A stretch of DNA of 64,000 bases. Origin: an uncultured delta proteobacterium. Lineage in GTDB: Bacteria > Desulfobacterota > Binatia > Binatales > Binataceae. The stretch lies in contig CAWBMF010000011.1 of the NCBI GenBank assembly GCA_963789835.1, forward strand, positions 9,814 to 73,813. Reading direction: 5' to 3'. A program made the position numbers and the translations under genes. Shown piece after piece: positions 11,349 to 33,175 of the stretch (position 1 is its first letter; each line of letters opens with the position of its first letter). The notes below the pieces were generated by a model that worked only from the letters and a program-made list of their open reading frames with translations, did not search any database and was not told where the DNA came from.

Positions 11349-11481
11349 CTCGGCCTATCACTTACGGACACGATAATGCACCAACAGCGTGCTGTATCTC
11401 AAATGAACGAGAGTCATGAAACCGTCGTCGCCGTTGATCGACTGGACCGACGAGAACTCAAGCAGGGATCGAATTCCTACC

Positions 11482-15059: not shown

Positions 15060-15301
15060 CTAAGCGAGTTATTACAGCAAATCTCAAATTAAGACACTAC
15101 TTGAAAATGATTACGTTGCGCATTGCCGTCTAAAATTGAAGCTTTGGGCCGGACGTCGAGTCCGAACTCAGCAAGCGAACTCAGAGCCGGGAGGGAAATA
15201 GCCTCCGGTTCAGCAACGCGGTTTAGGCAGAGGTTACGTCGCCCGCTGCTCCCTCGGCGAAATCGAACCGCTTGCCGCAGCAAGGTCCAGACTGCACCAA
15301 C

Positions 15302-18300
15302 TTATACGTTCAATTCGTCGAGGAGCGCCTTGGCGTCCTTCAAGTCGGCGGTGTCGAAGCCTTCGGTAAACCATGCGTAGATCGGCGCGAGGAGATCGCG
15401 CGCTTCTGAGGGTTTGCCCTGATCGCGCCACAGGCGCGCAAGGGTGGTCGCCGTGCTCAACTCGAAGGACTTCGCCCCCTGCGCTCGAGCAAAGTCGAGG
15501 GCGCGATGGAAATGGGCCTCAGCTTCGGCGATTGAGCCACCGCTGGCGAGAATAATCTCGCCCTGCAACCGATTCAATTCGGAATCGAATAGTCCCTGCC
15601 CCGTCTGGGCAGCGATAGCAAGTCCTGCCGCTGCCGCACCGCGCGCCTCTGTTAACTGACTCGCGGTCAAGTAAGCCTCGCTGAGCAGCGCGAATAAGAC
15701 CGGTGCGCCGCCTTGGTTGCCTGTCTCGGCTACGAGTGCGAGTCCCGCTACTAGATCGGCGATCGACTCGGACTCGCCTGCTGCCACGCGCGCCGCCGCG
15801 TATAGCGCTCTGCCGAGGCCAAGCCACAGCGGAAATCCGTGTGCCTCGCTCAGCGCAATCGTTTCAGCCGCATTCTCGCGTTGTCCTGTTATCTCGCGCC
15901 GACGCCAGTGCACAAAAGCTTTGAAGAAGAGGGCATTGGCTAGAGCGAACGGATAACCGAGCCGTCGAGCCATATCGACCGCATCCCCTGAGCTGGTGAT
16001 TGCCCGATCCAGCCATCCAAGGATCGAGAGATCATTCGCGATCCAAACCAGTAAAGGGGGACCGAGATCCTCAGCTATTGCCCCGTAGCCTTGTCCTGGC
16101 GAGTACAAAGCTTGCCCCGTCTCGAGATGGGCGAGCGCAGAAGCGAACTTGCCCTGGTAGGTTTCAGCAGTACCGATATCAAAATGTCCACTAACCGCTA
16201 GGTGCCTGTCGCCGGTCTGCTCCGCGATCGTCAACATGCGAGCGCCCACCACACACGCGCGCTCGACCAGTCCGGAGTTGAGAGCGAAAAGCGCCAGGCC
16301 GTCGAGAGCAAACCCTAGACGGGCATCGCCCGTGGTCTCGCATAGGACGCGCGCTCGGTCGTATGCAACCTCGACTTCAACGTGTGCATAGCCCTTTGCA
16401 GCCGTTAGCGACTGGCAGAGGGTAAGCTGAAGCTGTATCTCGAGAAGTTCTCGTTCCATGCCTTCTGGTTGCGACGCCAGCAGAATGATTGCTTTGCGTA
16501 GATGGCGAATCGCTTCCTCGTGTGCCGAGCGCGATTGAGCCTGCCCGCCAGCGCGCTGATAGGCGGCGATTGCCTCGCCGATCCTTCCTGCCGCCTCCGC
16601 GTGGCGCGCAAGCAGCTCCGGCTCGGCTGCCGCGGTCTCCGGGAACGTTGCCATCAGTACGTCGACGACGTGACCGTGAAGTTGCTGACGGGTGCGCTTG
16701 AGCAGGGAATCGTAAGCTGCTTCCTGTACCAGTGCGTGCTTGAACGCGTAGACGGCCTCGGGCGGCTCGCCGCGCACAAACACGATCTCCCCCTCGGCCA
16801 GGCGGGCCAATCCTTGCTGCAGGGCGGCTTGGTCCATTCCTGCGACTGCAGCCAGGAGAGAATACGAGAACTCGCGCCCGAGCACCGCGGCCCGTTGTGC
16901 CACTTCCTTGGCTGCCGAGAGGCGGTCAAGGCGCGCCATCAGGGAATCCGCTATGGTCGCAGGGATTGCCTCGACTACACGCGCCGCGCCAGGCTCCACC
17001 ATCGCTTTGGTCAACTCCTCGAGGTAGAGCGGTACGCCGTCGGCGCGAGCGACCAGTGCTTCGAGCGTGTCCTGCGGCAATTTCTCGGCCAAAAGCGACG
17101 CGACCATATCGCGAGCTTGGCGTTTGGTCAGGCGTTGGAGCGAGAGCGTAGTCGTGTTCTGTCGCGCCGACCACTGCGGCGTGAACTCGGGCCGCGCCGT
17201 AGCGAGCAACAGCACCCGCGCCGTCGCGCTTTGTTCGATCAAGCGCCCAACCACCTCCAGCGACGATGCGTCGCACCAGTGTAGATCCTCAACCAACACG
17301 ACAAGCGGTTGCGCTTCGCTCAGCGCTAGGCTCCATTCGGCAAGCAGATCGATCGTTCTGTGGCGCTGGAGGTCGGGGTTCATCTGCAGCGGTATAGGAG
17401 TCTGAAGGCCCAACAAGTCTGCCATCAGTGCAACCTTGTCTGTCGAGGCCAGTGCACCCAGACCGGTTTCGAGCTTCTTCAGCTTCTCTACCAGCGTATC
17501 TTCAGGCTTGAAGGCGAGTGCCTGTGACACCAGCGCGATCACGGGATGGAAAGGCGTGCCTACAGTGTACGGCGTGGCGCCGCACTCCAGCCAAGTATGG
17601 GGCACGGCGTTGAGGCGCTCATGGAGCTGGTAGGCAAGCCGCGACTTGCCGACGCCGGCCTCGCCCTGAATCAGAGCGTTCTGCCCTTCGCCATCCTGCG
17701 CCCGCTCCCAACGCTCTACCAGGGTCGCCAGTTCAACTTCGCGACCGACGAACGGTGTGAGCCTCCCCGAGGCGACATCGAGCCGGCTGCGCACGCCGCT
17801 TGGCCTCACAGCTCGATAGAGCGTCACCGGCTCGCGCACGCCCTTGAGCGCTTGCGGACCGAGGTCTTCGAGCACGAACATCCCCGCGACGAGCCGCTGA
17901 GTCGCCGCGGTGACGGCAACCGTATCGGGCTCCGCAGCCGTCTGGACTCGCGCAGCCACGTTTGCGGTCTCGCCGAAGACCTCGTCGCCACCCGTGACCA
18001 CCACGGGACCTGTGTGCATGCCAATTCGCACCTGCAGGCGCGGCCCGCCCTTGGCGGCGAGCGTTGAATTGAGCGACACCATTGCTTCTAAAATTGCGAG
18101 TCCCGCACGAATGGCGCGCTCGGGATCGTCCTCGTGCGCGGCAGGCCAGCCGAAGTAGATGAGCAAGCCATCTCCGAGCTTCCGGGCGAGATGTCCGCCG
18201 AATCGCACGACTGCGCTTGCCGCGATCTGTTGGTACTGCTCGATGATGTCGCGACATTCCTCGGCGTCGAGCTGCTGCGAGAGCGGAGTCGATCCAACGA

Positions 18301-18463
18301 GGTCGCAGAAGAGAACGGTCAGATGGCGCCGCTCGCCGTCGGAAGTTTCTTGATGCTCCGGAACAACACCATCCGCAGCGGGTGGAGCGTCGGCAACGCC
18401 GATCGGCGCTCCGCACTTGCCGCAAAATCGCGCTGCAGGCGAGTTCTCGAATCCGCACTTCAC
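15302..18463 (-). CDS. paralogous Zn-ribbon / class III cyclase / AAA-STAND ATPase / TPR multidomain protein
   Basis: 'CGFENSPAARFCGKCG', 'RRHLTVLFCDLVGSTP...RIGMHTGPVVV', 'IQGEAGVGKSRL'; the same architecture as the neighbouring gene; 1053 aa. Confidence 0.85.
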   Translation of the reverse strand: MKCGFENSPAARFCGKCGAPIGVADAPPAADGVVPEHQETSDGERRHLTVLFCDLVGSTPLSQQLDAEECRDIIEQYQQIAASAVVRFGGHLARKLGDGLLIYFGWPAAHEDDPERAIRAGLAILEAMVSLNSTLAAKGGPRLQVRIGMHTGPVVVTGGDEVFGETANVAARVQTAAEPDTVAVTAATQRLVAGMFVLEDLGPQALKGVREPVTLYRAVRPSGVRSRLDVASGRLTPFVGREVELATLVERWERAQDGEGQNALIQGEAGVGKSRLAYQLHERLNAVPHTWLECGATPYTVGTPFHPVIALVSQALAFKPEDTLVEKLKKLETGLGALASTDKVALMADLLGLQTPIPLQMNPDLQRHRTIDLLAEWSLALSEAQPLVVLVEDLHWCDASSLEVVGRLIEQSATARVLLLATARPEFTPQWSARQNTTTLSLQRLTKRQARDMVASLLAEKLPQDTLEALVARADGVPLYLEELTKAMVEPGAARVVEAIPATIADSLMARLDRLSAAKEVAQRAAVLGREFSYSLLAAVAGMDQAALQQGLARLAEGEIVFVRGEPPEAVYAFKHALVQEAAYDSLLKRTRQQLHGHVVDVLMATFPETAAAEPELLARHAEAAGRIGEAIAAYQRAGGQAQSRSAHEEAIRHLRKAIILLASQPEGMERELLEIQLQLTLCQSLTAAKGYAHVEVEVAYDRARVLCETTGDARLGFALDGLALFALNSGLVERACVVGARMLTIAEQTGDRHLAVSGHFDIGTAETYQGKFASALAHLETGQALYSPGQGYGAIAEDLGPPLLVWIANDLSILGWLDRAITSSGDAVDMARRLGYPFALANALFFKAFVHWRRREITGQRENAAETIALSEAHGFPLWLGLGRALYAAARVAAGESESIADLVAGLALVAETGNQGGAPVLFALLSEAYLTASQLTEARGAAAAGLAIAAQTGQGLFDSELNRLQGEIILASGGSIAEAEAHFHRALDFARAQGAKSFELSTATTLARLWRDQGKPSEARDLLAPIYAWFTEGFDTADLKDAKALLDELNV

Positions 18464-20297: not shown

Positions 20298-20601
20298 CCG
20301 TTCTTTGAGACGCGCAAACTTGTGCGTCTGTTATCCCCTTCGGTGGTCTGCAGGATTTCGACCGCGACCCGTGTAGTCGCCTTGTAGAACCGTACGGCGG
20401 CCGCCGGTATTGGATCAATGGTGCGAGGGCGTTTGTTGTGATATGCCGCGAAGCGCCAGCCTGCTGCGAGGTCAAGCAAAACGTGCCCGACCCTCGCGGC
20501 CACATTTTTCAGATCAGCCCGAGCTTCATCGACGCGTTCCAGTTGCGACTGTGGCGGAATTTCTTCGGTCTCAAAACCGAAATCGAAAATTGTGGGCAGT
20601 A

Positions 20602-20702
20602 AGTGGGCACTCTATCGGGGCTGAGATTGCGCGGATCGCCGTAAGTACCTAATAAATAAGGGCGGAGGAGGAAGGGGCCCGGTGGCCCCACCGGTCTTCA
20701 AA
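20602..20702. repeat. ~100-bp direct repeat that includes a 5'-half pseudo-copy of tRNA-Sec (20661-20702) plus about 59 bp of its upstream region; partner at 28829-28929
   Basis: 'agtgggcactct...gagattgcgc.gatcgccgtaagtacctaataaa.aagggcggaggaggaaggggcccggtggccccaccggtcttcaaa' is shared with the selC locus and then diverges exactly inside the anticodon loop. Confidence 0.75.
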
Positions 20703-20746
20703 TCCCCTTGCACGCGTTGAGCGATTGATCGGGACCGTTGCGACAA

Positions 20747-21031
20747 TCAGTGCGTACTCGGGGATAGTTTGGCTGCGACTGCGACCTCGGTCGATGAGTC
20801 GCTATGTCCTTCTGCTGATTGCTGGAGTTGTATTCCATTTTTCTGGAGCTGAGATTTATTCTCGTTCCAGCCCGGAATTGGCGTCGGGTCTGCTGGAGTC
20901 GGCGGAATGTAAAGGCAGGCGGAGGTTCCGATCGCCAGCAGGAGCAACGCTGCGACCGCTGCGAACGAAAATACTTTTCTGCGGCATGTTGACGCTATTC
21001 CGCGGAGAGAAATCAACCCGTATTTCGCCAT
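20747..21031 (-). CDS. small secreted protein or lipoprotein
   Basis: Start chosen at the ATG preceded by an AAGGGG Shine-Dalgarno; signal peptide 'MAKYGLISLRGIASTCRRKVFSFAAVAALLLLAIGTSAC'; no recognisable family. Confidence 0.35.
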   Translation of the reverse strand: MAKYGLISLRGIASTCRRKVFSFAAVAALLLLAIGTSACLYIPPTPADPTPIPGWNENKSQLQKNGIQLQQSAEGHSDSSTEVAVAAKLSPSTH

Positions 21032-21439
21032 CGTCTTACCCCTTTGAGAATCACGCACCTCACGAGACATCTCTCGCGATCGGGTCCATTTCCCTTTCCT
21101 GACCGTCGTTTTTCGGCCAAAATTAGCCAACAAAGGTGACCCTACTTTTTGTAGGCTCACTATACTTATAGATTCATTGCGGATCTGTGTAAAGACCGCC
21201 CAGACGCTCAATTGGCCCCGAATACCTATTCTCGAGTTAAGCGTTTTTGGGGCGAATTGCCGATTTCTGCAGGATGTAACCGGAATTGTCGGGCCGGTAC
21301 TGAGCGCGACGTTCTAAGTGCTCAATGGATCGTGTGATCGGAGCCGACTGTCAGGCTCACGCATCTATAGGCCAAACTTTTCTCCGGCTTTGAGCTAGCT
21401 AGATCTACGGGCCGGCGCCGGGACAATCGGAGTTGGCGA

Positions 21440-22273
21440 TCAAGAGCGTTTTTCGAAAATTCGCGCGTAAGTTTTTTGCGTGGCGGCGGCCTGATCCTGC
21501 GCCTTCTTCCGTTCCTCCGGCGTTGCCATTTCCGCGATCATTTTGCGCTCAAGAGCAAGGGCATCTTTCAGCGGCAATTCGACGCCGCGATTAATCAACT
21601 GTTTTGCGGTCTTGAGCGCATAGGCAGCTCGCTCGAGATAGACGCCGGCCATCTTCTCGCACTCTTTTATCAAATCCGCTGCCGGCGTCACGCGATTCAC
21701 CAGCCCCACTCGGAACGCTTCTTCCGGCGTCCATGGAAGTCCGCTGAAAATCATCTCCTTCGCAATGCCGGTGCCGACCAGGCGTGGAAGTCGCTGCGTT
21801 CCTCCGCCGGCCGGCAGGGCGCCGAACCGAATTTCCGGGAGACCTATCGTCGCAGTATCTGAAATAACCCTGATGTCGCATGCGAGCGCGATTTCGCAGC
21901 CACCGCCCATCGCGGCGCCATTGATCGCGGCAATCACCGGGACTCGAGATTCCTCGAGCGCACTAAAGATGTCGCGCCGTGGTGTCACAAAGTCTCCGCC
22001 GCCCTGTCGTTCAGAGCCGCTCGAGGCCCGCTGCTGGGCGCGCTCCGCGAAATCACGTAAGTCGGCGCCGCCACAGAAATGCTTCCCCGCTCCCGTTAGG
22101 ATGACGACTCGATACTCCGGATCAGCTTCGACTTGTTCCATCGCACTGACTACATCGTGCATGAGTTGAAGGCTGATGGTATTCGCGCGGTCGGGGCGAT
22201 TCAGCGTCAGGTAGCCGATTCCGTCTTTGCGATCGAGAATTATCGTCTCGTATTTCATACTGCTCTCCATCAT
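21440..22273 (-). CDS. enoyl-CoA hydratase/isomerase (crotonase) family protein
   Basis: 'GIGYLTLNRPDRANTI...VVILTGAGKHFCGGADL...AAINGAAMGGGCEIALACDIRV' crotonase fold. Confidence 0.85.
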   Translation of the reverse strand: MMESSMKYETIILDRKDGIGYLTLNRPDRANTISLQLMHDVVSAMEQVEADPEYRVVILTGAGKHFCGGADLRDFAERAQQRASSGSERQGGGDFVTPRRDIFSALEESRVPVIAAINGAAMGGGCEIALACDIRVISDTATIGLPEIRFGALPAGGGTQRLPRLVGTGIAKEMIFSGLPWTPEEAFRVGLVNRVTPAADLIKECEKMAGVYLERAAYALKTAKQLINRGVELPLKDALALERKMIAEMATPEERKKAQDQAAATQKTYARIFEKRS

Positions 22274-22276
22274 CGA

Positions 22277-23068
22277 CTACATTGCGAACGAATAGCCGCC
22301 GTTAACCGGAATTGTCTGTCCTGTGATCCAGCTCGACGCATCGGAGCTTAGAAACAAAATCATGTTGGCCGCATCTTCCGGCTCGCCGATGCGCTTGATC
22401 TGGTAGACCTTTAACATTCGCTTGATCGTTTCAGGATCCGATGTGGCGCGCTCGATAGCCGGCGTGCGCGTCGCACCAAGTGCGACACAATTCGCCGTGA
22501 TTCCTGCGCGGCCGAGATCCTTGGCGACCGCTCGCATGAAGCCCGCAGCACCCGCCTTGGCCCCCGAGTAAATCTCCAGATGAGGCTCGCCGACCCGGCC
22601 GGCATCCGAGATTACAGTCACGATCTTGCCATACTTGTTGGCAATCATTCCTGGCCCCGCGATTCGCACGCAGTTCAGCACGCCAAAAAGATTGGTGCCG
22701 AGAAACGGCTCCCAGTCCTTCGGCTCCTGCTCCCAGAAGGGTTTGCGCGCGACGGCGCTCGGATCGGCGCCGGCGTTGCCCGCGTTATTCACGAGAATAT
22801 CGACTTTGCCGAAAGTCGCGCGCGCTTTTTCAAACATCGCGGTGACCGACGCAAAGCTGGTCACGTCGCATTGCGCCGCGATCGCTTTGACGCCCATTTT
22901 TTCCACTTCGGCGGCGACGGCCTCAGCGCGCTCGAGACGGAAATCGTTGACGACCACGCCGCCCGCATTGTTCTCGGCGAAGCGAAGCGCGACCGCGCGT
23001 CCCACGCCTTGCCCGGCGCCGGTCACCAGGCCGACGCGTCCTTTGAGATCGAGGATGTTACTGCTCAA
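22277..23068 (-). CDS. short-chain dehydrogenase/reductase (SDR)
   Basis: 'GRVGLVTGAGQGVGRA' Rossmann motif; 'NNAG' and a YxxxK region; 263 aa. Confidence 0.85.
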   Translation of the reverse strand: MSSNILDLKGRVGLVTGAGQGVGRAVALRFAENNAGGVVVNDFRLERAEAVAAEVEKMGVKAIAAQCDVTSFASVTAMFEKARATFGKVDILVNNAGNAGADPSAVARKPFWEQEPKDWEPFLGTNLFGVLNCVRIAGPGMIANKYGKIVTVISDAGRVGEPHLEIYSGAKAGAAGFMRAVAKDLGRAGITANCVALGATRTPAIERATSDPETIKRMLKVYQIKRIGEPEDAANMILFLSSDASSWITGQTIPVNGGYSFAM

Positions 23069-23086
23069 GTGCGTTCCTCCAGATGA

Positions 23087-24295
23087 TTAGGCGAGTATTC
23101 CCGCCTCACTTAATTGCGCGATCTCCTTGTCCGACATTCCCAGGACCGTCGACAGCACCTCGTTGGTCTGCTCGCCGATTCGCGGCCCACGCCGAGTCGG
23201 CGCAAGCGATGTTCGATCGAGCGAGAACCGCGGGCCCTCGATTTCCGCTTCTCCGAAAACCGGATCATTGATCTGGTTGAGATGACCCGCGTCGCGAAGA
23301 TCGACATCGCGCGCGAGATCACTGCCATGGCTCACGACATGCGCCGGCACTCCTGCCGCTTGCAGGCGATCCTCGACCGCCGCGGCCTCCTGCTCACGCG
23401 TCCAGGTCGCGATCGCCGCCTCCAGCTCATCGCGATTGCGCAGCCGTCCGACAATAGTGCCGAACTTCGCATCGCGCAGTTCCACGATCACCGCGCGAAG
23501 TGCGTCCCAATGAGTTGACGCCGACGCGTCGATCGCAATCCATCGATCCTCACCGCGGCATGGATACAAACCCTGCGGCACGTGCAGCGGCGATCCGGCG
23601 ACGCCGCGGCGTTCCGGAATCGTGCCGTTCGCGGCGTACTCGTAGTATGCAGGCATCATGAACTGGATCCCCGCTTCGGCCTGCGCAGTATCGATGTAAC
23701 ATCCGTGGCCAGTAACCGACCGGCGATGGAGCGCCGCCAGGATGCTCGCGACAATAAACCGCGGCGTCACCGCGTCGGTCCACGGACCAAACGGTCCGGC
23801 CGGCTCGCGATCGGGCCATCCGATTTGATAGGTCGCGCCCGACATCGCCGCGCCCATCGTGCCCACGCCGCTGGTGCCCTTTGCATACGGTCCCGTTTGT
23901 CCGAGCAGGCTGGTCGACGCCATGATGATCCGATCATTGCGCTGCTTCAGATCCGAATATCCGAGCTGAAGCGTTTCCAGCACGCCGGGCGTGAAGCTCT
24001 CCAGCACGACGTCCGCCCATTTCGCGAGCCGCAAAATGATCTCGCGGCCCTCCGGCCGGCGGATATCGATCGCGATACATCGCTTGCCCGCGTTGAGATT
24101 GTGATAGCTGACCGAGCGTTCGGGCCCCGTCTTACCGTCCTTGAACGGACCGAGCGTGCGCACCGGATCGATGCGCTTGGAGCTTTCGACCTTGATAACG
24201 TCTGCGCCCATGTCGGCGAGATAGCGGCCGCTGGCCGGCCCGACCATGACCCAGCTCAAATCGAGCACGTTGATGCCATCGAGCGGTGCCGACAT
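23087..24295 (-). CDS. family III CoA-transferase (CaiB/BaiF family)
   Basis: 'GINVLDLSWVMVGPASGRYLADMGADVIKVE'; start placed at 'MSAPLDG', where its ATG overlaps the upstream gene's stop codon (ATGA), not at the 60-aa N-terminal ORF extension. Confidence 0.8.
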   Translation of the reverse strand: MSAPLDGINVLDLSWVMVGPASGRYLADMGADVIKVESSKRIDPVRTLGPFKDGKTGPERSVSYHNLNAGKRCIAIDIRRPEGREIILRLAKWADVVLESFTPGVLETLQLGYSDLKQRNDRIIMASTSLLGQTGPYAKGTSGVGTMGAAMSGATYQIGWPDREPAGPFGPWTDAVTPRFIVASILAALHRRSVTGHGCYIDTAQAEAGIQFMMPAYYEYAANGTIPERRGVAGSPLHVPQGLYPCRGEDRWIAIDASASTHWDALRAVIVELRDAKFGTIVGRLRNRDELEAAIATWTREQEAAAVEDRLQAAGVPAHVVSHGSDLARDVDLRDAGHLNQINDPVFGEAEIEGPRFSLDRTSLAPTRRGPRIGEQTNEVLSTVLGMSDKEIAQLSEAGILA

Positions 24296-24296
24296 C

Positions 24297-25520
24297 CTAG
24301 ATTGCTCCTGCGACGAACAGCGCCTGGATTTCAGTTTTCGAAAGTCCGAGTTCCGCTCCAAAAATCTCGGCGGAGTGTTCGGACAACTTCGGCGCTGGCC
24401 GCTTAATCTCGATCGAGTAGTTCGAGAATTGTGCAAAGCGCGCGGGCGTATCGATCTCGCGACCCGCATCGACACTCACCGGCGCGAAAAGCCCACGCTC
24501 GCGATACTGAACATATTCGGCGACGTCCTTCATGTGCATCACGGGCGATGAGAGCAGTCCGAGCCGACGCGACGCCTCGGCGAGATCAGCCTTACTCTTC
24601 GATCGCGCGAGCGACTTGAGTCCGTCGACCAGCGCTTGCAGATCCGATGGCGATACTTTTCGCGAGGACAGGTCGCCGATGAACGACGGCCAGTTGATCT
24701 CTGCGATTCTGTTGTCCGCGTGCCCCTCTTCGGCCGCCCACTTCGCAAGCCGCTGCGTCATCTGCCCGAACACGGGGCCGAAGCCGATCGTAATCAGCGT
24801 GTATCCATCCGCGCATTCGTACACGCTCGGAACTTGCACTCCTGCGATCGTCATCGCGCCTTGCGAGCGTTTGCCCTCCGGATTTCCTGAACCCGGAACC
24901 AGCGCCTGGCCGAATGAACCCATCATCGCCGCGATTCTCGCCGACACCTCAGCCCGCTGCCCGACTCCATCGCGGTCGCGTGCGATAAGTCCTGCGAGCG
25001 CCGCGATCGCGGCGTCAGCACCAGCCTCCATCATTGCTTGCGGCACCGGAAAAAAAAGTGGCGGGCGATCGAGATCTCCGGTCATCGCCGGCGCACCGCT
25101 CGCTGCCATCACGGTGAAATCGGTCGCAGCGTATTCGGTCTTTGGGCCCGTGCGAACGAACGGAGCGATCGTGCATCTGATCGTTCGAGGTGAAAATTCA
25201 ATTGAGTCCAGCGGCGAGGTTCTGCGCGAACTTGCTGCTTCGATTACTACGTCGAACTTGGTGGTGAGGTCTCGCATCATCGCCTTTCCATCTGGCGATG
25301 AAAGATCAAGCGTGACTCCGCGTTTGTTGTAGTTCAGCGCGTGCCAGGTGAGGCTCCGCTCGATTCCGGGAATGTCGTCGAGGAAGGGCGCAAGTCGCCG
25401 ACCCGGAGATCCAGCAGGCGGCTCGACAACGACAACGTCTGCACCGAGATCCGCGAGAATCCGCCCCGCAAGCATCGTCTCCGGCGCGGAGACCTCCAGC
25501 ACCCGAACGTCATTGAGCAT
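24297..25520 (-). CDS. family III CoA-transferase (second paralog)
   Basis: 'VRVLEVSAPETMLAGRILADLGADVVVVEPPAG'; 407 aa. Confidence 0.8.
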   Translation of the reverse strand: MLNDVRVLEVSAPETMLAGRILADLGADVVVVEPPAGSPGRRLAPFLDDIPGIERSLTWHALNYNKRGVTLDLSSPDGKAMMRDLTTKFDVVIEAASSRRTSPLDSIEFSPRTIRCTIAPFVRTGPKTEYAATDFTVMAASGAPAMTGDLDRPPLFFPVPQAMMEAGADAAIAALAGLIARDRDGVGQRAEVSARIAAMMGSFGQALVPGSGNPEGKRSQGAMTIAGVQVPSVYECADGYTLITIGFGPVFGQMTQRLAKWAAEEGHADNRIAEINWPSFIGDLSSRKVSPSDLQALVDGLKSLARSKSKADLAEASRRLGLLSSPVMHMKDVAEYVQYRERGLFAPVSVDAGREIDTPARFAQFSNYSIEIKRPAPKLSEHSAEIFGAELGLSKTEIQALFVAGAI

Positions 25521-26154
25521 GCGCCGGCCTCAGGCTTCGCTCGATACTTAAGAGCAACTCGCGACAGACTCGATCTGTATCGAAGGCTCGCGGCTTCATC
25601 AGATGCTGCACCACCAATCCTCGCAGCATTCCAACGAACAGGGCCGAGTACGCGGCAGGATCGACGTCACGGCGAATCTCTCCGAGCCGCACCCCTTCCT
25701 CGATCAACTTCTGCACCGATCTCCGAAATTTTCGGTCCGCTTCGGCCATCTCGCCTCGAATCTCGCGCAGCGGACCGAGCGCCTCGCCGATCAACACGTA
25801 CATCGCATTGCGATCGCTCGAAGCAGCCGCACGCAAATATGTTTCTGCCGTGACGAGCAGCGCTTCCATTCCGTGCCGCCCGGCCAGCGCCGGTTCCAGC
25901 ATTTTTGCAAAGTCGTGTTGCAGGCGTTCGGTCACCGCGCGTACCAGCGCTCCCTTCGATCCGAATCGATGGCTGACGAGTCCGTGGCTGTAGCCGGACA
26001 AGTCGCCGATTTCCACCAACGTCGTCCGGCTGCCGCCCTGCCGTTCGATCAGTTTGAATGCCGCGTCGAGCATCCGCTGATCGGAGAGCTCGCGTCGTTG
26101 CGCTTGTGTGCGGCGCCGGCGTGGCGTGCGCTTTGATTGAGCTGATACGGCCAT
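25510..26154 (-). CDS. TetR/AcrR family transcriptional regulator
   Basis: 'DQRMLDAAFKLIERQGGSRTTLVEIGDLSGYSHGLVSHRFGSKGALV' HTH; start taken at the internal Met 'MAVSAQ'; transcribed divergently from the DUF35-thiolase-NMO genes. Confidence 0.75.
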   Translation of the reverse strand: MAVSAQSKRTPRRRRTQAQRRELSDQRMLDAAFKLIERQGGSRTTLVEIGDLSGYSHGLVSHRFGSKGALVRAVTERLQHDFAKMLEPALAGRHGMEALLVTAETYLRAAASSDRNAMYVLIGEALGPLREIRGEMAEADRKFRRSVQKLIEEGVRLGEIRRDVDPAAYSALFVGMLRGLVVQHLMKPRAFDTDRVCRELLLSIERSLRPAHAQ

Positions 26155-26241
26155 CGAGCGGGACGATACATACTTGCTGGTCAGCATGCAAGTATTGACG
26201 GGCGCAAACAGTTCGTCGTATTCTCGCGCCCGGAGAAACTC

Positions 26242-26664
26242 ATGCCCAATCGAAAAGCCGTTCATCCCGAACTCTACTCGCCCGACTCCGCCGGCATTCC
26301 CTCTCTGACTGGCGGTAAGTGTCGCGCGTGCGGGTACGTCTTCTTCCCGTCGCAACGCTATGGATGCGAGTCATGCGGCGCACCGCCCGAAAATCTCGAG
26401 GCAGCGGAATTGAGCGGATGCGGCAGGCTTCATTCGTATGCAACCGTTCATCTCTATCAGGGCAAAGACATCGAGGCTCCATTCACCGTCGGCCTGATCG
26501 TCCTTGACGAAGGCCCTGCCATTCGATCGTTGCTGACCAGCCGCACTGATGATGGCCTTAGCATCGGCGATCGCATGAACAGCGTGCTGGTCGCGGCCGG
26601 TACCGACGCCGACGGCAACCAGATGGTCGAGTTGCGTTTTGCGCGGGCAGAGGCGGGCCGGTGA
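26242..26664 (+). CDS. Zn-ribbon + OB-fold protein (DUF35), the partner subunit of SCP-x-type thiolases
   Basis: 'GKCRACGYVFFPSQRYGCESCGA' rubredoxin-like Zn-ribbon followed by an OB-fold; located immediately upstream of the thiolase-like gene. Confidence 0.75.
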   Translation: MPNRKAVHPELYSPDSAGIPSLTGGKCRACGYVFFPSQRYGCESCGAPPENLEAAELSGCGRLHSYATVHLYQGKDIEAPFTVGLIVLDEGPAIRSLLTSRTDDGLSIGDRMNSVLVAAGTDADGNQMVELRFARAEAGR

Positions 26665-26668
26665 AAAG

Positions 26669-27820
26669 ATGAAAAAGAATCTTCGCGACATGCGCCCGGT
26701 CTACGTCGTCGGTATCGGCCTCCATCGCTATCAGCGGCTTAGCGAAACGCCGTACGTGACACTCGGTCTTACCGCGGTGCGCGAGGCTCTTGCCGATGCC
26801 GCCCTTAAATGGCGATCGGTCCAGTCGGCTTACACCGGGACGGCACTGATCGGGATGGCGGCGTCACGGCCGATGCTGCGTCATCTCGGCGCGACCGGGA
26901 TTCCGATGGCGCAGGTTGAGAACGCGTCCGCGTCCGGCTCGACCGCATTTCGCCAGGCGTGCATCGACGTCGCGAGCGGGTTGACCGATGTTTCACTCGC
27001 AGTCGGCGTGGACAAACCGGGACCGGTTGCGATGGCGCCCGGCAAGACCCGGATGCGCGACCTGGTCGGCTCTCGCGTGGTGCCGTTCACGCATTTCGCG
27101 CTGCTCACCCAGGAGTACATGACTCGGTATGGGGTGAGCGCGGAACAAGTTGCGCAGGTTGCCGTCAAGAACAATCGCAACGGCGCGAACAATCCCTATG
27201 CTCAGCGCCAAAAGGCCGTGACTCTCGACGAGGTGATGGCCGGTCCCGCGATTTCAGGATCGTTGACGCGCCTGCAATGCTGCCCTGTCGGCGAAGGCGC
27301 AGCGGCGGTGATCGTAGCGTCTGACGACGCGATCGCAGATCTCGGGATCGATCGCAATCGCGCAGTCAAAGTGATCGCGTCAGTTACGAAAACGGAACAA
27401 GTTTATCGCGACGCGAAGAATTTCGATGCCGAGCTTACTCGCGAGACGGTCGAGCAGGCATATCGCGAAGCCGGGATTGCACCCGGCGATCTCGATCTGA
27501 TGGAACTCCATGACGCGTTCACGATCGAAGAGCTGTTGTACACTGAGGCGATGGGTCTATGCGCTGCCGGCAACGCTGCGAGCGCAATCGCGGCGGGCGA
27601 ATTCGATATCGGTGGACGCTGCGCCGTAAGTGCGTCAGGCGGACTGCTCGCGATGGGCCATCCGATCGGTCCGACCGGTGCCGGGCAGATCGCCGAAATC
27701 ACGCGGCAGTTGCGTGGCGAGGCTGGCGTCCGCCAACAGCCCAATGCGAAGACGGGACTTGCTCACATGGTGGGCGTCGGCGCGGTTTGCGTCGTTCACA
27801 TTTTGCAGAAGGATGCGTGA
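26669..27820 (+). CDS. thiolase-like protein (SCP-x / nonspecific lipid-transfer-protein-type thiolase)
   Basis: 'VYVVGIGLHRYQR...GIPMAQVENASASGSTAFRQA...HMVGVGAVCVVHIL' condensing-enzyme fold; start at the 'MKKNL' Met. Confidence 0.8.
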   Translation: MKKNLRDMRPVYVVGIGLHRYQRLSETPYVTLGLTAVREALADAALKWRSVQSAYTGTALIGMAASRPMLRHLGATGIPMAQVENASASGSTAFRQACIDVASGLTDVSLAVGVDKPGPVAMAPGKTRMRDLVGSRVVPFTHFALLTQEYMTRYGVSAEQVAQVAVKNNRNGANNPYAQRQKAVTLDEVMAGPAISGSLTRLQCCPVGEGAAAVIVASDDAIADLGIDRNRAVKVIASVTKTEQVYRDAKNFDAELTRETVEQAYREAGIAPGDLDLMELHDAFTIEELLYTEAMGLCAAGNAASAIAAGEFDIGGRCAVSASGGLLAMGHPIGPTGAGQIAEITRQLRGEAGVRQQPNAKTGLAHMVGVGAVCVVHILQKDA

Positions 27821-27823
27821 GCG

Positions 27824-28813
27824 ATGCTGTCGAATCGTCTCCCGGATAAAATCGCGAAACGGCTGCGGCTGCCACTGATTGCGGCTCCAATGCTCTCGGT
27901 CTCCGGACCCGATCTCGCGATCGCAGCGTGCAAGGCTGGTGTGATCGGATCGTTTCCGCTTGCGAATGCTCGAACGGTCGATGGCGTCGAGGCATGGCTG
28001 AAGCAAATTGAAACTGAGCTGGCGCGAACGGCCGACGAAATTCCCGAGCACCCTCCCGCACCGTTCTGCCCCAACCTGATCATCAAGCGCGCGCAAATGC
28101 GCGACGAACTGCACGCGCTGGTGAAGCATCGAGTTGAGATGGTCATCACGAGCGTCGGCTCGCCGGTCGAAGCGATCGGACCACTGCACGACGTCGGATG
28201 CATCGTCTTTGCGGACGTCGCGACGCTTCACCATGCCGAGAGAGCGATGGCAGCCGGCGTCGATGGACTCATCCTGCTGACTGCAGGCGCGGGCGGACAG
28301 ACCGGATGGCTCAATCCGATTGCGTTCGTCCGTTCGGTGCGCGCGATGTTTGAGGGACCGATCGTGCTGGCCGGCGGAATCTCCGATGGCCACGCGCTGT
28401 GGGCTGCCGAGGTGCTCGGTTGCGATCTCGCCTACATGGGAACCAAGTTCATCGCGACGCATGAGAGTATGGCGCCGCCCGCGTACAAGAAGATGCTGGT
28501 TGAATCGGGCATGGACGACGTGATGCTCACGCAAGCGTTCACCGGCCTGGACACCAACATGTTGAAGCCTTCGATGGTTGCGGCAGGACTCGATCCGTCA
28601 ACCCTGCCGCCCCGCGTGTCGCATGAAGAGGCCGCGAAGAAGTTCGGCAGCATGGCCGTGGTCGAAGGCCCGCGCCGCTACAAAGACATCTGGAGCGCCG
28701 GCCATTCGATCTCGGGCGTGGACAGGATTCAAAGCGCGGCAGAACTCACAGACCGAACCCTCGCAGAATACCTGGCAGCGCGCGACCACACGGCCCGCCT
28801 CCTATCCAAGTGA
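27824..28813 (+). CDS. nitronate monooxygenase (NMO / 2-nitropropane dioxygenase-like, FMN-dependent)
   Basis: 'LPLIAAPMLSVSGPDLAIAACKAGVIGSFP...DGLILLTAGAGGQTGW...VLAGGISDG' NMO TIM-barrel motifs. Confidence 0.8.
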   Translation: MLSNRLPDKIAKRLRLPLIAAPMLSVSGPDLAIAACKAGVIGSFPLANARTVDGVEAWLKQIETELARTADEIPEHPPAPFCPNLIIKRAQMRDELHALVKHRVEMVITSVGSPVEAIGPLHDVGCIVFADVATLHHAERAMAAGVDGLILLTAGAGGQTGWLNPIAFVRSVRAMFEGPIVLAGGISDGHALWAAEVLGCDLAYMGTKFIATHESMAPPAYKKMLVESGMDDVMLTQAFTGLDTNMLKPSMVAAGLDPSTLPPRVSHEEAAKKFGSMAVVEGPRRYKDIWSAGHSISGVDRIQSAAELTDRTLAEYLAARDHTARLLSK

Positions 28814-28828
28814 GGCAGGCTGCACTCA

Positions 28829-28929
28829 AGTGGGCACTCTGGCGCGCGTGAGATTGCGCCGATCGCCGTAAGTACCTAATAAACAAGGGCGGAGGAGGAA
28901 GGGGCCCGGTGGCCCCACCGGTCTTCAAA
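28829..28929. repeat. ~100-bp direct repeat, copy 2; the intact copy carries the 5' half of tRNA-Sec
   Basis: Partner of 20602-20702; about 90% identical by eye. Confidence 0.75.
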
Positions 28930-28989
28930 ACCGGCTTGGCGGCTAATATTGTTGCCGGAGGGTTCGACTCCCTCCCCCCTCCGCCACCA
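28888..28989 (+). tRNA. selC: tRNA-Sec-like gene (anticodon TCA, reads UGA); the encoded CCA is included
   Basis: 8-bp acceptor stem GGCGGAGG/CCTCCGCC with discriminator A and CCA; 6-bp D-stem GGGGCC/GGCCCC with a 4-nt loop; anticodon loop CTTCAAA; long variable arm; T-arm GAGGG-TTCGACT-CCCTC. Total length is ~102 nt and there are extra nucleotides at the acceptor/D and T/acceptor junctions, so exact folding needs a covariance-model check. Confidence 0.6.
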
Positions 28990-29363
28990 GTTTCCGCGGG
29001 CCGCGTGGTCAAGAGGGAGCGCCGCTCTAGAGCGGCTCAGGCCGAGGAATTTTTTCTTTTCCAGCCTCTACCAGCGTAGAATCCAGTGCGTTATGAGCGG
29101 CATCCCAGCGCTATTCACGCCTGCTCAGGCGCTTGGAGCTTGGTCACGCGACTTCGTACCCAGCTCTGAGGCCACTCCAGCACCGTCACCAGCGCTCGGC
29201 GATTTCACCAGCACGCCGGTGCTTACAGGCGCGCTCTGCGCTCGATGCCGTCGCGCTTTGCGACGCAACGGCACAAGGTGCGCGCCGGACGCGCGCGAGC
29301 GCGCAACGCGGCGCGCGATCAGCTTGGGCGGTTCCTGCTTCGCGCCTAAGCGACTCCCTACAC

Positions 29364-29510
29364 TCGCTCGCGAAGCTCCTTAATGCGCAGGTCCTTGGCC
29401 TTCAGCTTTGCCTTGAGCGCTTTGTTCTCTGCCCGGAGAGCTTCCTTTTCAGCAGCCACCTTGTGCTCTCGAATGGAGCGGTTTCGATCCCCTGCGACGC
29501 GCGACATAAA
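29364..29510 (-). CDS. small coiled-coil protein (49 aa), hypothetical
   Basis: Translated by eye from the minus strand: MSRVAGDRNRSIREHKVAAEKEALRAENKALKAKLKAKDLRIKELRERV; it is below the 60-aa ORF-track cutoff and lies in the lower-GC patch. Confidence 0.25.
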
Positions 29511-29591
29511 TTGCTATCCTCCACTTTATCTTAGATTGTATGATAGAATTACCATCAAATTTGCGTTTCACGCAATGTTTGGAGGCGACAC

Positions 29592-29779
29592 ATGCCCGAG
29601 CAATTCAATGTTGGAGATACCGTGCAGCTAAGGAGCGGTGCTCGATGACCATTGAGCAAGTTATTGACGGAAAATCAGCCAGATGCGTATGGTTCGACGG
29701 CCCTAAGAAGACAAATGCAGTTTTTGCGCTCGCGACACTGGAGAAGACTGCCGAAGAGCTCACCCACAACGCGCACTGA
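29592..29779 (+). pseudogene. DUF2158 (YodC-like) small protein gene interrupted by a single-nucleotide frameshift near 29640
   Basis: GGAGG Shine-Dalgarno 5 nt upstream of ATG 29592. Frame A reads 'MPEQFNVGDTVQLRSGAR*'; a second frame continues 'MTIEQVIDGKSARCVWFDGPKKTNAVFALATLE'. Joined, they match the DUF2158 consensus 'GDxVxLKSGGPxMTV...CxWFDG'; inserting one C restores 'SGAPMTIEQV'. Confidence 0.6.
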
Positions 29780-30008
29780 CACAAAGTACTCGCTGGCCTC
29801 GTGACGCTCAAGGTACCAGCGCAGGCCGCGCGCGCACGCGTCTAAAGGAATTTGAAAAGGGACGAGCATAGGTGTCGCGATCATTCCCGCCGGAAAGCAG
29901 CCTTAAAAATCGGTGGCGCTTGGTGGTGCTCGGAATGCGTTCTGAGAATCGCGGCCGCGAGCAACAAATATCGGAAGCAGTAAAAAACTTAACTAGGGGA
30001 GGGAGAGA

Positions 30009-30284
30009 GTGAGCACTCTGGAAGTCTTCGCTGCCTTGGGGGTCGTGTTGCTATCAATCGGGATAGGGTTCGTGCTCGGCGGATACAAAACTATCGTAAT
30101 ACCCGTCCCCAAACGTCCCAAGCTGGTACGAGCTAGCTCCTTCACTAAGGACGTTCTCTTAAACCCTTTGCAGATTTCCTTCGTGGAACTCGGCGAGGGC
30201 GGTCCGAACAGTGATGCGGTTCATTTCATCGACGGCAGCACGGTTTTTATCGATATGGCGCCGAGCGAGCTGGAACAGGACTAA
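30009..30284 (+). CDS. small membrane protein, hypothetical (GTG start)
   Basis: GGGGAGGGAG Shine-Dalgarno directly upstream; one TM helix 'VFAALGVVLLSIGIGFVLGGY'; lies in the lower-GC patch. Confidence 0.4.
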   Translation: MSTLEVFAALGVVLLSIGIGFVLGGYKTIVIPVPKRPKLVRASSFTKDVLLNPLQISFVELGEGGPNSDAVHFIDGSTVFIDMAPSELEQD

Positions 30285-30470
30285 GCACGCGCGCTAGCGT
30301 GCAGATGTTTCGATATCTGACAAGTGAAGTAGGAGCGCCGCGCTCCGCCGTGGCAGGATGGTCCTCCCCCTCCGCCGGTTTGCCTCACGCAAGGACATAG
30401 TTCATTCTCTTGTTGAACTATGTAGTTCGATAGATGAACTGATCACCGCAACCAACTCGGGAGTAGTGCC

Positions 30471-32723
30471 ATGAGTGAAGACTGGCAGAAGACGATTTGC
30501 ATCCTGTGCAGTGTCAATTGCGGAATCGAGGTGAAGCTCGAGGGGCGGCATATCACGCGCGTCCACGGCAATCGGGAGCATGTCGCGTCGCAGGGCTACG
30601 CCTGCGAGAAGGCGCAGCGGATTGACTACTACCAGAATGGCAGAGACCGGCTGACTTCGCCGATGCGGCGGCGTGCCGACGGCACCTTCGAGGAAATCGA
30701 CTGGGATACCGCAATCCGCGAGGTCGCCGCCGGCTTCCTTAAAGTTCGCGAGCAATTCGGCGGCGCGAGCATCTTCTATTACGGCGGCGGCGGGCAGGGG
30801 AACCATCTTTGCGGAAGCTACGGCGCCTCGACTCGGCGCGCGCTCGGCTCGGTCTTCAGCTCCAACGCGCTCGCCCAGGAAAAGACCGGCGAGTTCTGGG
30901 TCGACCACAAGCTCTTCGGCACCGGGCTTAGCGGCAGCTACCAGCAGGCCGAGGTCGCCGTGTTCGTCGGCAAGAATCCATGGCAGTCGCATGGCTTCCA
31001 GCGCGCGCGTCCGATTCTGCGCGACATCGCGGCCGACCCGAATCGTGCGCTGGTCGTGATCGATCCGCGTCGCACCGAGACGGCCGAGATGGCCGATTAC
31101 CATTTGCGCGTGCGTCCCGGCACCGACGCCTTTTGCCTCGCTGCGATTCTCGGCGTTCTCGCGCAGGAGGATCTGATCAATCCGGATTACATTCGCGATC
31201 GCACTCAAAATAGCGATGAGCTGATCGAAGCACTGAACGACGTGCCGGTTGCGGACTACTGCGGGCGCGCCGGCGTCGACGAGACTTTGATTCGCGAGGT
31301 GGCGCGCCGGCTCGCACGCGCTGCGAGCGTTTCGGTTTACGAAGACCTCGGCATCGAGCAGTCGCTCCACAGCACGCTCAATTCCTATCTCGAGAAACTG
31401 CTTTTCGCCTTGACCGGCAATGTCGGCAAGCGCGGCGCGATGAACGCGGGCACGAGCCTGACGGGAATGTTCGGCGGTGCGCTCTCGGCGCAGACCAGTC
31501 CGGTCGGCGGCCATCGGATTATCGGCGGGATGATCCCGGCCAACGTTATTCCCGATGAAATCCTGACCGACCATCCCAAGCGTTTCCGCGCGATGCTAGT
31601 CGAAGCCGAAAATCCGGCGCACTCGGTCGCCGACAGCGTCCGGATGCGCGAGGCGCTGCGGGCGCTGGAGTTCGTCGTCGTGATCGACGTTGCGATGACC
31701 GAGACGGCGCGCGAGGCGCATTATGTTTTGCCGTCCTCGTCGCAATATGAAAAGTGGGAAGCGACTTTCTTCGGCGCGGCGTTCCATACCGAAACGGATT
31801 TCGCCAACACTTTCACACTGCGCGCACCGATTCTCGATGCGATTCCCGGAACGCTGCCCGAAGGCGAGATTCATCGCCGGCTGGTGCGCGCGCTCGGCGC
31901 CATGACCGATGAGGACGTCGCTCCTCTGCACGCGGCCGCGGCCAAGGGCAGGGCCGAATTTGCGATGGAACTGATGCGCGCCGTTTCCGAGAGTCCGCGC
32001 CTGGCGGGGATAATGACGGTGCTTCTGTATGAGACCCTCGGTCCGACGCTGGGCGCGGGAAATGAGAATGCCGCGTCGGTGTGGGGTATCGCGCACAACT
32101 TCGCGCGCAGGTATCCGGACTCGCTGCATCGCGCTGGTGTCGCCGGCGAAGGGCCCGCGCTCGGCGAGGCGCTGTTCGACGCGATCATGAAGAATCGCTC
32201 GGGCGTCGTGATGAGCGTCGATCCTTACGAAGAGACCTGGCGCAGAATTCATGACGAGAAGATCAACCTGACGATTGCCGAGCTGATGCCCGAGCTGAAA
32301 GCGCTGCGCGACGAGCATCCGGTGCGCGATGCTGACTTTCCGTTCGTGCTGTCCGCGGGTCAGCGGCGTTCATCGACCGCCAACACGATCATTCGCGATC
32401 CCCAGTGGCGGCCGAAGGATCCGGCCGGCGCGCTCTGGATGAACCCGGCGGACGCCTCCGAACTGGGCGTCGAGAACGGCGGCCGCGTACGGATTACGAC
32501 CAAGCGTGCGAGCGCCGAGAGCGTGGTCGTGCTGACCGACACGATGATGCCGGGACACGTCGCGCTGCCGAACGGGACGGGGCTGTGGTATCCGGACCGC
32601 GAAGGCCAGGAATTTCAGCATGGCGTTGCACCCAACGAGCTCACGGTGACCGAGGATCGCGACTGGTTCGCCGGCACGCCGTTTCACAAGCATGTGCCGG
32701 CGCGAATCGAGGCGGTTGACTGA
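30471..32723 (+). CDS. molybdopterin oxidoreductase (formate dehydrogenase/nitrate reductase superfamily catalytic subunit)
   Basis: N-terminal 4Fe-4S motif 'CILCSVNCGIEV...GYACEK'; 750 aa with a C-terminal molybdopterin-dinucleotide-binding domain; no in-frame TGA. Confidence 0.8.
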   Translation: MSEDWQKTICILCSVNCGIEVKLEGRHITRVHGNREHVASQGYACEKAQRIDYYQNGRDRLTSPMRRRADGTFEEIDWDTAIREVAAGFLKVREQFGGASIFYYGGGGQGNHLCGSYGASTRRALGSVFSSNALAQEKTGEFWVDHKLFGTGLSGSYQQAEVAVFVGKNPWQSHGFQRARPILRDIAADPNRALVVIDPRRTETAEMADYHLRVRPGTDAFCLAAILGVLAQEDLINPDYIRDRTQNSDELIEALNDVPVADYCGRAGVDETLIREVARRLARAASVSVYEDLGIEQSLHSTLNSYLEKLLFALTGNVGKRGAMNAGTSLTGMFGGALSAQTSPVGGHRIIGGMIPANVIPDEILTDHPKRFRAMLVEAENPAHSVADSVRMREALRALEFVVVIDVAMTETAREAHYVLPSSSQYEKWEATFFGAAFHTETDFANTFTLRAPILDAIPGTLPEGEIHRRLVRALGAMTDEDVAPLHAAAAKGRAEFAMELMRAVSESPRLAGIMTVLLYETLGPTLGAGNENAASVWGIAHNFARRYPDSLHRAGVAGEGPALGEALFDAIMKNRSGVVMSVDPYEETWRRIHDEKINLTIAELMPELKALRDEHPVRDADFPFVLSAGQRRSSTANTIIRDPQWRPKDPAGALWMNPADASELGVENGGRVRITTKRASAESVVVLTDTMMPGHVALPNGTGLWYPDREGQEFQHGVAPNELTVTEDRDWFAGTPFHKHVPARIEAVD

Positions 32724-33175
32724 TGCGGCGAACTCGCTTCGACCGCTGGCCGTGCCCGATTGCGCGCACCACCGACCTGGTGGGCGATTGGTGGACGCCG
32801 CTCGTGATGCGCGAGGCGTTCGCCGGCCGCCGTCGCTTCGAGGATTTCCAGCGCGCGCTGAAAGTTCCGCGCGCAGTGCTCGCGCGCCGGCTCGATCGCC
32901 TGGTCGATGAAGGCCTGCTCAAGAAGGTCGCCTACGAAGAGCGTCCTCCGCGTTTCGAATACCGCCTGACGGACAAGGGCCGCGCGTTCTGGGACGTGCT
33001 CGCCGCGATGTGGCGATGGGGCAGCGACTGGCTCTGGGGCGAAGGTGGTCCGCCGGTGATTCTTATCGACGCTGAAACGGGCAATGAAGTTCGTCCGCTG
33101 GTGGTCGATGAAAACACCGGGATTCGCCTGGCCGGCCGCCGCCTGCGCATGGGACGCAAGCAACCCGCTGCCTGA
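32723..33175 (+). CDS. HxlR family winged-helix transcriptional regulator
   Basis: 'WPCPIARTTDLVGDWWTPLVMREAFAGRRRFEDFQRAL...RRLDRLVDEGLLKKVAY'; its start overlaps the upstream stop codon (TGATG). Confidence 0.8.
   Translation: MRRTRFDRWPCPIARTTDLVGDWWTPLVMREAFAGRRRFEDFQRALKVPRAVLARRLDRLVDEGLLKKVAYEERPPRFEYRLTDKGRAFWDVLAAMWRWGSDWLWGEGGPPVILIDAETGNEVRPLVVDENTGIRLAGRRLRMGRKQPAA

Follow-up and report, generated by a model that had tools for sequence, protein, structure and literature searches.

Why should the front half of a selenocysteine tRNA gene, together with the DNA upstream of it, occur a second time 8.2 kb in front of the gene itself? This arrangement is present in a 64,000-nucleotide (nt) stretch from an uncultured member of the Binataceae (assembly GCA_963789835.1, contig CAWBMF010000011.1, positions 9,814 to 73,813 of the forward strand), which is the whole DNA analyzed here and is called the window below; all positions are those of the window. 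A preliminary description of this DNA had taken the two copies for the attachment-site (att) type scar of tyrosine-integrase recombination in the tRNA gene, selC. The recurrence of the boundary in relatives, the tyrosine integrases that adjoin such sites and the motif pairs that lie symmetrically about the crossover, along with the anatomy of the repeats themselves, agree with that proposal, and we consider it about 60% probable that the repeats are attL- and attR-type products of such recombination in selC and that the DNA between them is a degraded, integrase-less module of an accretion array. From these observations we infer that the integrases described below catalyzed the exchanges, that the inserted elements supply the selC promoter, and the order of events that is set out further on.

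The window contains one tRNA gene, which ARAGORN identifies as tRNA-Sec with anticodon TCA (selC; 28891-28986, + strand; anticodon UCA in the RNA). The Rfam covariance model RF01852 accepts it (72.4 bits, E value 6.8e-13; the gathering score of the model is 47), and its cloverleaf (6-bp D stem, 4-nt D loop and long extra arm) folds at -52.5 kcal/mol with a z score of -3.7. In the ARAGORN/Rfam register the 8/5 acceptor/T geometry is correct and the CCA is encoded; the 8-bp acceptor stem has one A-C mismatch, for which a compensating T is present in some relatives. The preliminary description had recognized selC correctly and had given it the coordinates 28888-28989, which exceed the true ends by 3 nt on either side. 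Those ends are accounted for by a register shifted by 3 nt, in which a perfect 8-bp helix (GGCGGAGG/CCTCCGCC) is followed by a second CCA; the linker lengths of that register are impossible, and it is not kept in relatives. Among the scanned open reading frames (ORFs) of the window there were no selA, selB or selD genes and no UGA-containing selenoprotein genes, and no in-frame TGA was found in the molybdenum oxidoreductase ORF beside selC.

The second copy forms a direct repeat with the gene (20601-20705 and 28828-28932, 105 nt, 92% identity), so that a displaced selC fragment and the intact selC, in the same orientation, bracket an 8.2-kb insert. The first 39 nt of the tRNA are identical in the two copies (39/39; 20664-20702 and 28891-28929), and this 39-mer is matched exactly at two places in the window, for which shuffled sequences lead one to expect 0; the 63 nt upstream of it agree at 56 positions. 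The anticodon loop (CTTCAAA, with the stem halves CCGGT and ACCGG on either side) is still identical to its final base, and there the identity stops. It had been claimed that the duplicated part is the selC 5' half with its upstream flank and that the similarity stops in the anticodon loop, and both statements hold; the repeat was also located correctly, and only its extent needs correction, from 42 tRNA nt plus about 59 upstream nt to 39 plus 63. All seven mismatches lie outside the tRNA part (p ~0.03 by our own hypergeometric estimate), and the two upstream arms are 89% identical to one another, while each is up to 92% identical to copies in other species. This distribution of mismatches and these arm identities argue that the copies diverged in separate working selC genes and did not arise by local duplication. 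The possibility that the pair is part of a longer segmental duplication is ruled out by a repeat search of the whole window, which yields only the 105-nt pair. A disrupted second selC with its 3' half elsewhere is likewise ruled out, since no such half is present in the window at 4 or fewer mismatches, and no partial Rfam match to a stray selC 3' half was found in the window.

The left copy can be divided into an upstream, or P, arm (20592-20663, + strand), the displaced selC 5' fragment with tRNA nt 1-39 through the anticodon loop (20664-20702, +) and an 11-nt stub, TCCCCTTGCAC, of a putative element-side, or P', arm (20703-20713, +). The P arm was recognized by its motif pair and its A/T-rich block: the pair GTGGGCAG-TAA-GTGGGCAC at 20592-20610 is the sole such pair in the window, and the conserved A/T-rich block CCTAATAAATAAGGGC stands directly before the tRNA start. 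The stub was recognized by its likeness to junction family A (see below), its initial 7-13 nt matching the family A junctions of L053, L062, L070 and L095 (TCCCCTT..GCAC; L numbers are our labels for loci in related genomes). The rest of the P' arm is not present in the window, and the GTGGGCA pair found at +144 in relatives is missing. The right copy of the upstream region, that is, the P arm of the working gene (28814-28890, +), was recognized by its homology to the left copy, which is clear from 28828 onward; it has one intact GTGGGCAC at 28830, and the partner motif is degenerate and abuts the stop codon of the NMO gene described below.

Is this boundary peculiar to the window? When species-representative genomes were scanned for the 39-mer, 99 loci came up, and nearly all of them belong to Candidatus Binataceae/Binatus metagenome-assembled genomes (the older ones labelled Deltaproteobacteria). 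Full selC genes account for 82 of the loci and 5' fragments, truncated at the anticodon loop or shortly past it, for 16; one is of undetermined type. The crossover boundary is the same (within 0-7 nt) in the 16 independent fragments, which belong to at least three junction families. Family A starts with TCCCCTTC and comprises the window's left copy, L053, L062, L070 and L095; family B starts with ACCTATGCGG; and in family C the whole anticodon stem is shared before the sequences diverge. Five long contigs carry both a fragment and a full selC, and on these all seven fragments are upstream of the gene and co-oriented with it, 23.3-44.7 kb away; on two of the five the fragments form tandem arrays. 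The duplication of a tRNA 5' part, which the preliminary description called unusual, is thus unusual for bacteria generally and not for the Binataceae. One pair of relatives gives an empty and an occupied version of the site: L075 consists of left flank, selC and right flank, and contig CAVOUW010000003 has the 3.6-kb left flank of L075, a 5' fragment (L011), 36.7 kb of DNA, a full selC (L098) and then the right flank of L075. The region upstream of the full selC L098 is new relative to L075.

Three lineages of tyrosine integrase, confirmed with Pfam, adjoin selC sites or fragments in these genomes. The U2-type integrase gene ends 12-56 nt before selC in L087, L041, L069 and L028, with remnants at four more loci, and the family C fragments that pair with these loci are found 35-37 kb upstream; the U2-type gene of L087 has a TrwC/MOBF relaxase gene as its neighbour. 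The W-type integrase reading frame runs into the motif pair upstream of selC in L090 and L079 (a remnant is present in L050), and the L051-type integrase gene lies about 200 nt after a 5' fragment. Where integrase ORFs adjoin selC in integrated elements, they keep their full length (L087, L041, L069 and L079). The window holds traces of the W type. A remnant of its 3' tail (20556-20602, +), which ends in NFFGLKTEIENCGQ with the stop codon TAA at 20600-20602, stands at the left repeat, and its frame matches the C-terminal tails of the integrases, intact or in decay, in L090 and L050 (...KLEKSGH and ...QTETEKSGH) and ends at the same place. AAAACCGAAATCRAAAATTGTGGGCAGTAA is found again upstream of selC in more than 10 relatives, and the canonical, widespread selC upstream region finishes with the last W-type integrase codons (KTEIENCGQ followed by the stop), so the sequence that would drive selC in many of these genomes appears to descend from the right end of an element. 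An intact W-type integrase gene is present as well (3882-5120, +; Pfam Phage_integrase, Phage_int_M and SAM_3), 15.5 kb to the left of the selC fragment; it adjoins no selC sequence in the window. Its product is 58-76% identical to the integrases of L079 and L090, whose genes end 91-112 nt upstream of selC, and to that of L039, whose gene is 1.6 kb upstream of selC.

The GTGGGCA-N4-GTGGGCA pair behaves as might be expected of an integrase arm site. It occurs at -140 to -50 in 20 loci and exactly at +143/+144 in eight of the 16 fragments (families A and B), and elsewhere there are only 10 weak matches to it in 1.46 Mb. This places the pairs symmetrically, each at a distance of about 105-120 nt from the crossover, and makes them candidate arm-type integrase sites.

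These observations suggest the following mechanism, which would be the mirror image of the usual integration into tRNA genes. Crossover would take place at the 3' edge of the anticodon loop. The integrating element would bring its own selC nt 1-39 and about 60-110 nt of upstream sequence, probably with a promoter (in one element family this upstream piece would also hold the last codons of the integrase), and its insertion would rebuild a working selC at the right end of the element and displace the resident 5' half and upstream flank leftward. Repeated events of this kind in Candidatus Binataceae would build up arrays in which selC 5' fragments stand between the modules. For the window this would make 20664-20702 the displaced fragment, 28828-28929 the element-supplied part of the working gene, and the intervening 8.1 kb, a lipoprotein gene and a coenzyme A (CoA)-dependent catabolic cluster, the surviving part of the inserted module or modules. 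By its position the upstream region that feeds the rebuilt selC would be element-supplied, and the gene would presumably be expressed from it.

What, then, is the DNA between the repeats? Next to the stub lies a piece that we call segment X (20714-21343, - strand), made up of a small lipoprotein-like gene (20747-21031, 94 amino acids) and its upstream region. This gene has 68 homologues (67-97% identity) and no family in a Pfam search; segment X is common to the window, L106, L107, L108 and L111. It is followed by cluster C (21440-28813, eight genes on both strands, assigned with Pfam): ECH, a crotonase (21440-22273, -), SDR (22277-23068, -), two CoA-transferase III genes (23087-25520, -), TetR (25510-26355, -, an over-extended ORF), DUF35/ChsH2-like (26242-26664, +), an SCP-x-type thiolase (26639-27820, +) and NMO (27824-28813, +). 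The gene content given in the preliminary description matches these assignments. The eight-gene block (window ~21412-28817) is present at 85-95% nucleotide identity in L100, L101, L102/103, L106, L107, L111 and L112, and NMO homologues with 82-99% identity are abundant in Candidatus Binatus; no database record turned up for the NMO of the window itself or for P0001. A mobile cassette with terminal repeats of its own was considered for the cluster and discarded, as there are no bracketing repeats and no shared terminal motif in L100-L102. An integrase pseudogene in 20703-21440 was discarded as well: this interval has no tblastn match to the three integrase types and contains the conserved lipoprotein gene instead.

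Two relatives show that the history of the window has more than one step. L108 (97% identical; the single contig with the segment X pattern that was returned by a metagenome scan) and L111 (96%) have the same junction as the window, in which CTTCAAA is followed by TCCCCTT..GCACGCG, segment X and the cluster. In both the selC fragment is decayed, by differing mutations, and is preceded by another upstream arm and by a left flank with MFS and OprB genes. Because the same junction stands there with a decayed fragment, the window junction must be old and predate the L108 and L111 lineages; and because the window has a pristine fragment with a different arm and flank, a second, more recent exchange at this crossover must have given it a new left arm. 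The single insertion that had been pictured for this locus is thus too simple. In one version of the latest event, a module consisting of segment X and the cluster, or DNA carrying them, would have recombined into a fresh selC.

Several findings weigh against this account. All of the loci compared come from metagenome-assembled genomes or metagenome assemblies. No relative with the window's left flank and an empty selC was found among the 99 loci, the beta-lactamase homologues and L113, so the island's absence from an empty site with both window flanks, which had been suggested as a check, was not seen; these comparisons brought up the left flank of the window in no relative at all. There is no integrase or remnant of one in 20703-28827 by Pfam or by tblastn with the three integrase types, as the preliminary description had already remarked. 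What it termed a "catabolic island" could not be shown to be foreign: the GC content of cluster C is that of the flanks, which rules out a compositional island, and the 7.4-kb cluster, conserved across the genus, occurs in at least five other Candidatus Binatus contexts with differing neighbours and without bracketing repeats. In the closest relatives, L106 and L112, NMO is followed by unrelated DNA and not by selC. In L107 (10522-11360) the order is OprB, cluster, 14 nt, segment X and selC fragment, then an L011-type element; segment X and the cluster are circularly permuted there relative to the window, which a single insertion fails to explain, and an attempt to derive a single-step history for the permutation gave none. 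(The 14-nt linker between NMO and segment X in L107, CGGTAATCCGGGTA, could be what is left of a selC fragment and stub, although as evidence this is weak.) Finally, a sigma-70 consensus scan of the duplicated upstream region gave no match, and the promoter role that we give this region is a presumption.

Could the younger insert lie to the left of the repeat instead? A W-type element might have entered the old hybrid site (selC fragment joined to stub) of a pre-existing array of segment X, cluster and selC, in which case the window's left repeat would be the right end of the newer element and the beta-lactamase/cyclase region would be newer than the catabolic cluster. An integrase-tail remnant and a full motif pair do stand directly before the left repeat, as they do at W-type right ends, and the W-type integrase gene at 3882-5120 and a DNA methylase gene lie further left. 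The pristine state of the left fragment, where L108 and L111 have a decayed counterpart with another left flank, would also fit, as would the poor conservation of the left-flank beta-lactamase (the next best match has 83% identity and the following ones about 70%, Planctomycetota-labelled proteins among them; its context in L113 is unrelated to the window) beside a genus-conserved cluster. However, the 20.6 kb leftward contain no left end of such an element, be it a decayed fragment, a P' arm or a +144 pair, and the integrase beside the repeat is down to about 15 codons. Such a tail is present at many canonical selC loci, including the empty L075, and so does not by itself mark a recent element, and a hybrid att site is a less usual integration route than an intact gene. 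We regard this history as unlikely, though well worth keeping in mind.

Explanations that do without site-specific recombination fare worse. If the repeat had come from duplication of a segment, or from imported DNA that recombined homologously with the conserved tRNA as a short patch of homology, its end in the anticodon loop would be a coincidence; homologous exchange inside the 39-mer could be enough to account for the refreshed left arm, and the bracketed DNA has no integrase. Such a coincidence is very improbable in view of the recurrence of the boundary in all 16 independent fragments and at least three junction families, the adjoining integrases, the motif pairs symmetric about it, and the lack of any longer duplication. 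Still less credence is due to an assembly artefact in which the 39-105 nt in common served to join empty and occupied strain variants. The window does come from a metagenome-assembled genome, its left arm is unlike that of the near-identical L108 and L111, and related assemblies do break at this repeat (L053, L043 and the start of the L106 contig), but the shared stretch is far below typical assembly overlaps or k-mers, a 100%-identical beta-lactamase is found on a 202-kb contig in NCBI and ENA, and the layout with a fragment upstream of an intact gene is present on five independent long contigs.

If the repeats are att-type products, can the bracketed segment still move? The lack of an integrase, together with the mere 11-nt stub of the element-side arm, indicates a fixed remnant and not an active island, and the remnant is probably immobile, as the preliminary description had supposed from the missing integrase. 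The missing arm motif on the element side points the same way. Its att sites have an intact core, lack the +144 pair and have only one perfect motif in the right arm, and mobilization in cis or in trans is doubtful on this evidence. With att-type repeats at both ends and no recombination or transfer genes between them, the segment has the traits of a cis-mobilizable element (CIME). CIMEs and accretion arrays are known from the integrative and conjugative elements of the ICESt1/ICESt3 family; the window segment is likewise an integrase-less, att-flanked remnant in tandem with related elements at one target, and one related Binataceae element has a TrwC relaxase next to its integrase. The window remnant differs in lacking the element-side arm motif, and no conjugation genes are present in the window.

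Integration into tRNA genes almost always swaps the 3' part of the gene, so that the host promoter still drives it. Elements that replace the 5' part must supply a promoter, and these are documented mainly among archaeal pTN3-like plasmids. In the pTN3-like or TKV4-type elements of the Thermococcales, the identity between attP and attB is the tRNA gene's 5' half (41 bp through the anticodon), and integration rebuilds an intact tRNA gene that is cut off from its original promoter and expressed from the element (PMC8371274; PMC5495485). The 5'-half situation has been called "seldomly encountered in bacteria" in a review (PMC8371274). The 5'-half attachment-site layout is common to these elements and the Binataceae case, which differs in its bacterial host and selC target, in that its identity block additionally takes in 60-110 nt of upstream sequence, and in that at least three integrase lineages share one crossover. 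Moreover, in the SSV/pTN3 type attP lies within the reach of the integrase gene, which integration therefore disrupts, whereas in the Binataceae this gene is intact and ends 12-112 nt upstream of selC. The Binataceae selC case is thus a rare but known kind of integration, and the window segment is an ordinary decayed remnant of it.

The classical tRNA and tmRNA islands of the Islander and TIGER framework likewise have a tyrosine integrase that acts at a crossover in the symmetric anticodon stem-loop, an intact gene with a displaced fragment, and tandem arrays; there, however, the 3' part is usually replaced and the integrase gene lies at the tRNA 3' end, whereas in the present case it is the 5' part that is replaced, together with the upstream region. 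The configuration filter of Islander allows a 5' fragment upstream of the gene (PMC4383910). Filters of this type would reject the module in the window, because it has no integrase inside. In Enterobacteria selC is an integration hotspot (PAI I-536, LEE and SHI-2, with P4-type integrases). In the 8.2-kb structure it is the other end of the gene that serves, with a different crossover, and no P4-type integrase is adjacent, while a 1.38-kb insertion in the window, with its 14-nt repeat of the selC 3' end (below), is of the classical type of those islands.

The locus matters beyond the window because 5'-type integration is the rule at this one gene in a poorly known soil phylum, Binatota, where mobile elements are the probable source of the selC promoter in many genomes. 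Such 5' fragments could be overlooked or misread by programs that find islands and by tRNA annotation, and the integrases are candidate site-specific tools with a defined 39-nt target. A bolder view is that the upstream side of selC in the Binataceae is a platform for accretion and shuffling, on which several unrelated integrase lineages converge at one crossover and whole chromosomal operons, the catabolic cluster for example, move as integrase-less modules with tRNA half-sites at their bounds; we think it quite unlikely and offer it as speculation. If it were true, selC expression would be permanently element-derived, each element bringing a promoter and 5' half, and the permutation in L107 and the swapped left arm of the window would be traces of module capture and exchange between genomes.

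Some other features of the selC loci in relatives were noticed. Contigs JAJYVB010000073 (L018/L034) and JAJXZF010000031 (L042/L077) each carry two full selC copies 2.9-4.2 kb apart, and in L097 and L047 a full selC has a homologue of the L051-type integrase immediately downstream; these double-selC contigs and the latter two loci suggest that some elements carry an entire selC copy in attP. In L051, 40-100 nt past the exact 5' fragment, there is an apparent, badly decayed selC 3' half (ACTGGCCGTAGCGG...TCGATCTTGCCTCTGCCGC), and a whole tRNA gene may have been the origin of that element's attP. The L058, L065 and L088 contigs, which have been binned as Bryobacteraceae, Pseudolabrys and Acidiferrales, contain selC loci of the Binataceae type (over 2.9 kb, L065 shares 97% identity with L063, a Binataceae locus) and are probably mis-binned.

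To the right of selC is the 1.38-kb insertion just mentioned (28987-30361), which contains small unknown ORFs and a frameshifted DUF2158 gene at ~29593-29780; its start is common to L069 and L014. It is followed by a displaced fragment of the selC 3' end (CCTCCCCCTCCGCC; 30362-30376, +), a 14-nt copy of the acceptor 3' strand. In L001, L046, L074, L081 and L090 the insertion is absent and selC meets the sequence at window position 30362 directly. These five relatives and the 14-nt copy of the selC 3' end indicate a separate small insertion, to judge from its ends one with the classical 3'-type att duplication. Beyond it is the conserved chromosomal right flank (30471-33175, +), assigned by Pfam and synteny, which consists of a molybdopterin oxidoreductase gene (30471-32723, +) and an HxlR regulator gene (32723-33175, +); about 17 related species have this flank in synteny with selC, with 87-92% amino acid identity, and in none of these is cluster C next to selC. 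The following gene (33187-37716) encodes a 1509-amino-acid protein with a pro-kumamolisin domain, a highly repetitive core (6-18-nt periodicity) and extreme GC/AT skew, and similar repeat proteins are encoded near selC in L001, L081 and L095. Further right, at 44391-50626, lies a tandem duplication of about 3.1 kb with 70-84% identity, which consists of two neighbouring paralogues, now diverged, of an RND (AcrB-type) transporter gene.

In the left part of the window, an N6/N4 DNA methylase gene (1547-2953) lies just upstream of the intact integrase gene, which suggests that the left end of the window is inside a mobile element. A 190-nt stretch after the integrase gene (window 3882-5260 for the two together) recurs 6.4 kb downstream, at 11450-11640, with about 80% identity, and there only the last ~17 integrase codons are kept. 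This pair brackets transglutaminase-like, DUF2064, GT2 and radical-SAM genes and looks like another tandem module of integrase tail and arm; an Rfam search at the pair gave no family match. It is followed, at 11715-18463, by two tandem paralogues of 1114 and 1053 amino acids, with zinc ribbon, adenylate/guanylate cyclase, AAA_16 ATPase and TPR assignments, and weak homologues lie upstream of selC in L001, L020 and L051.

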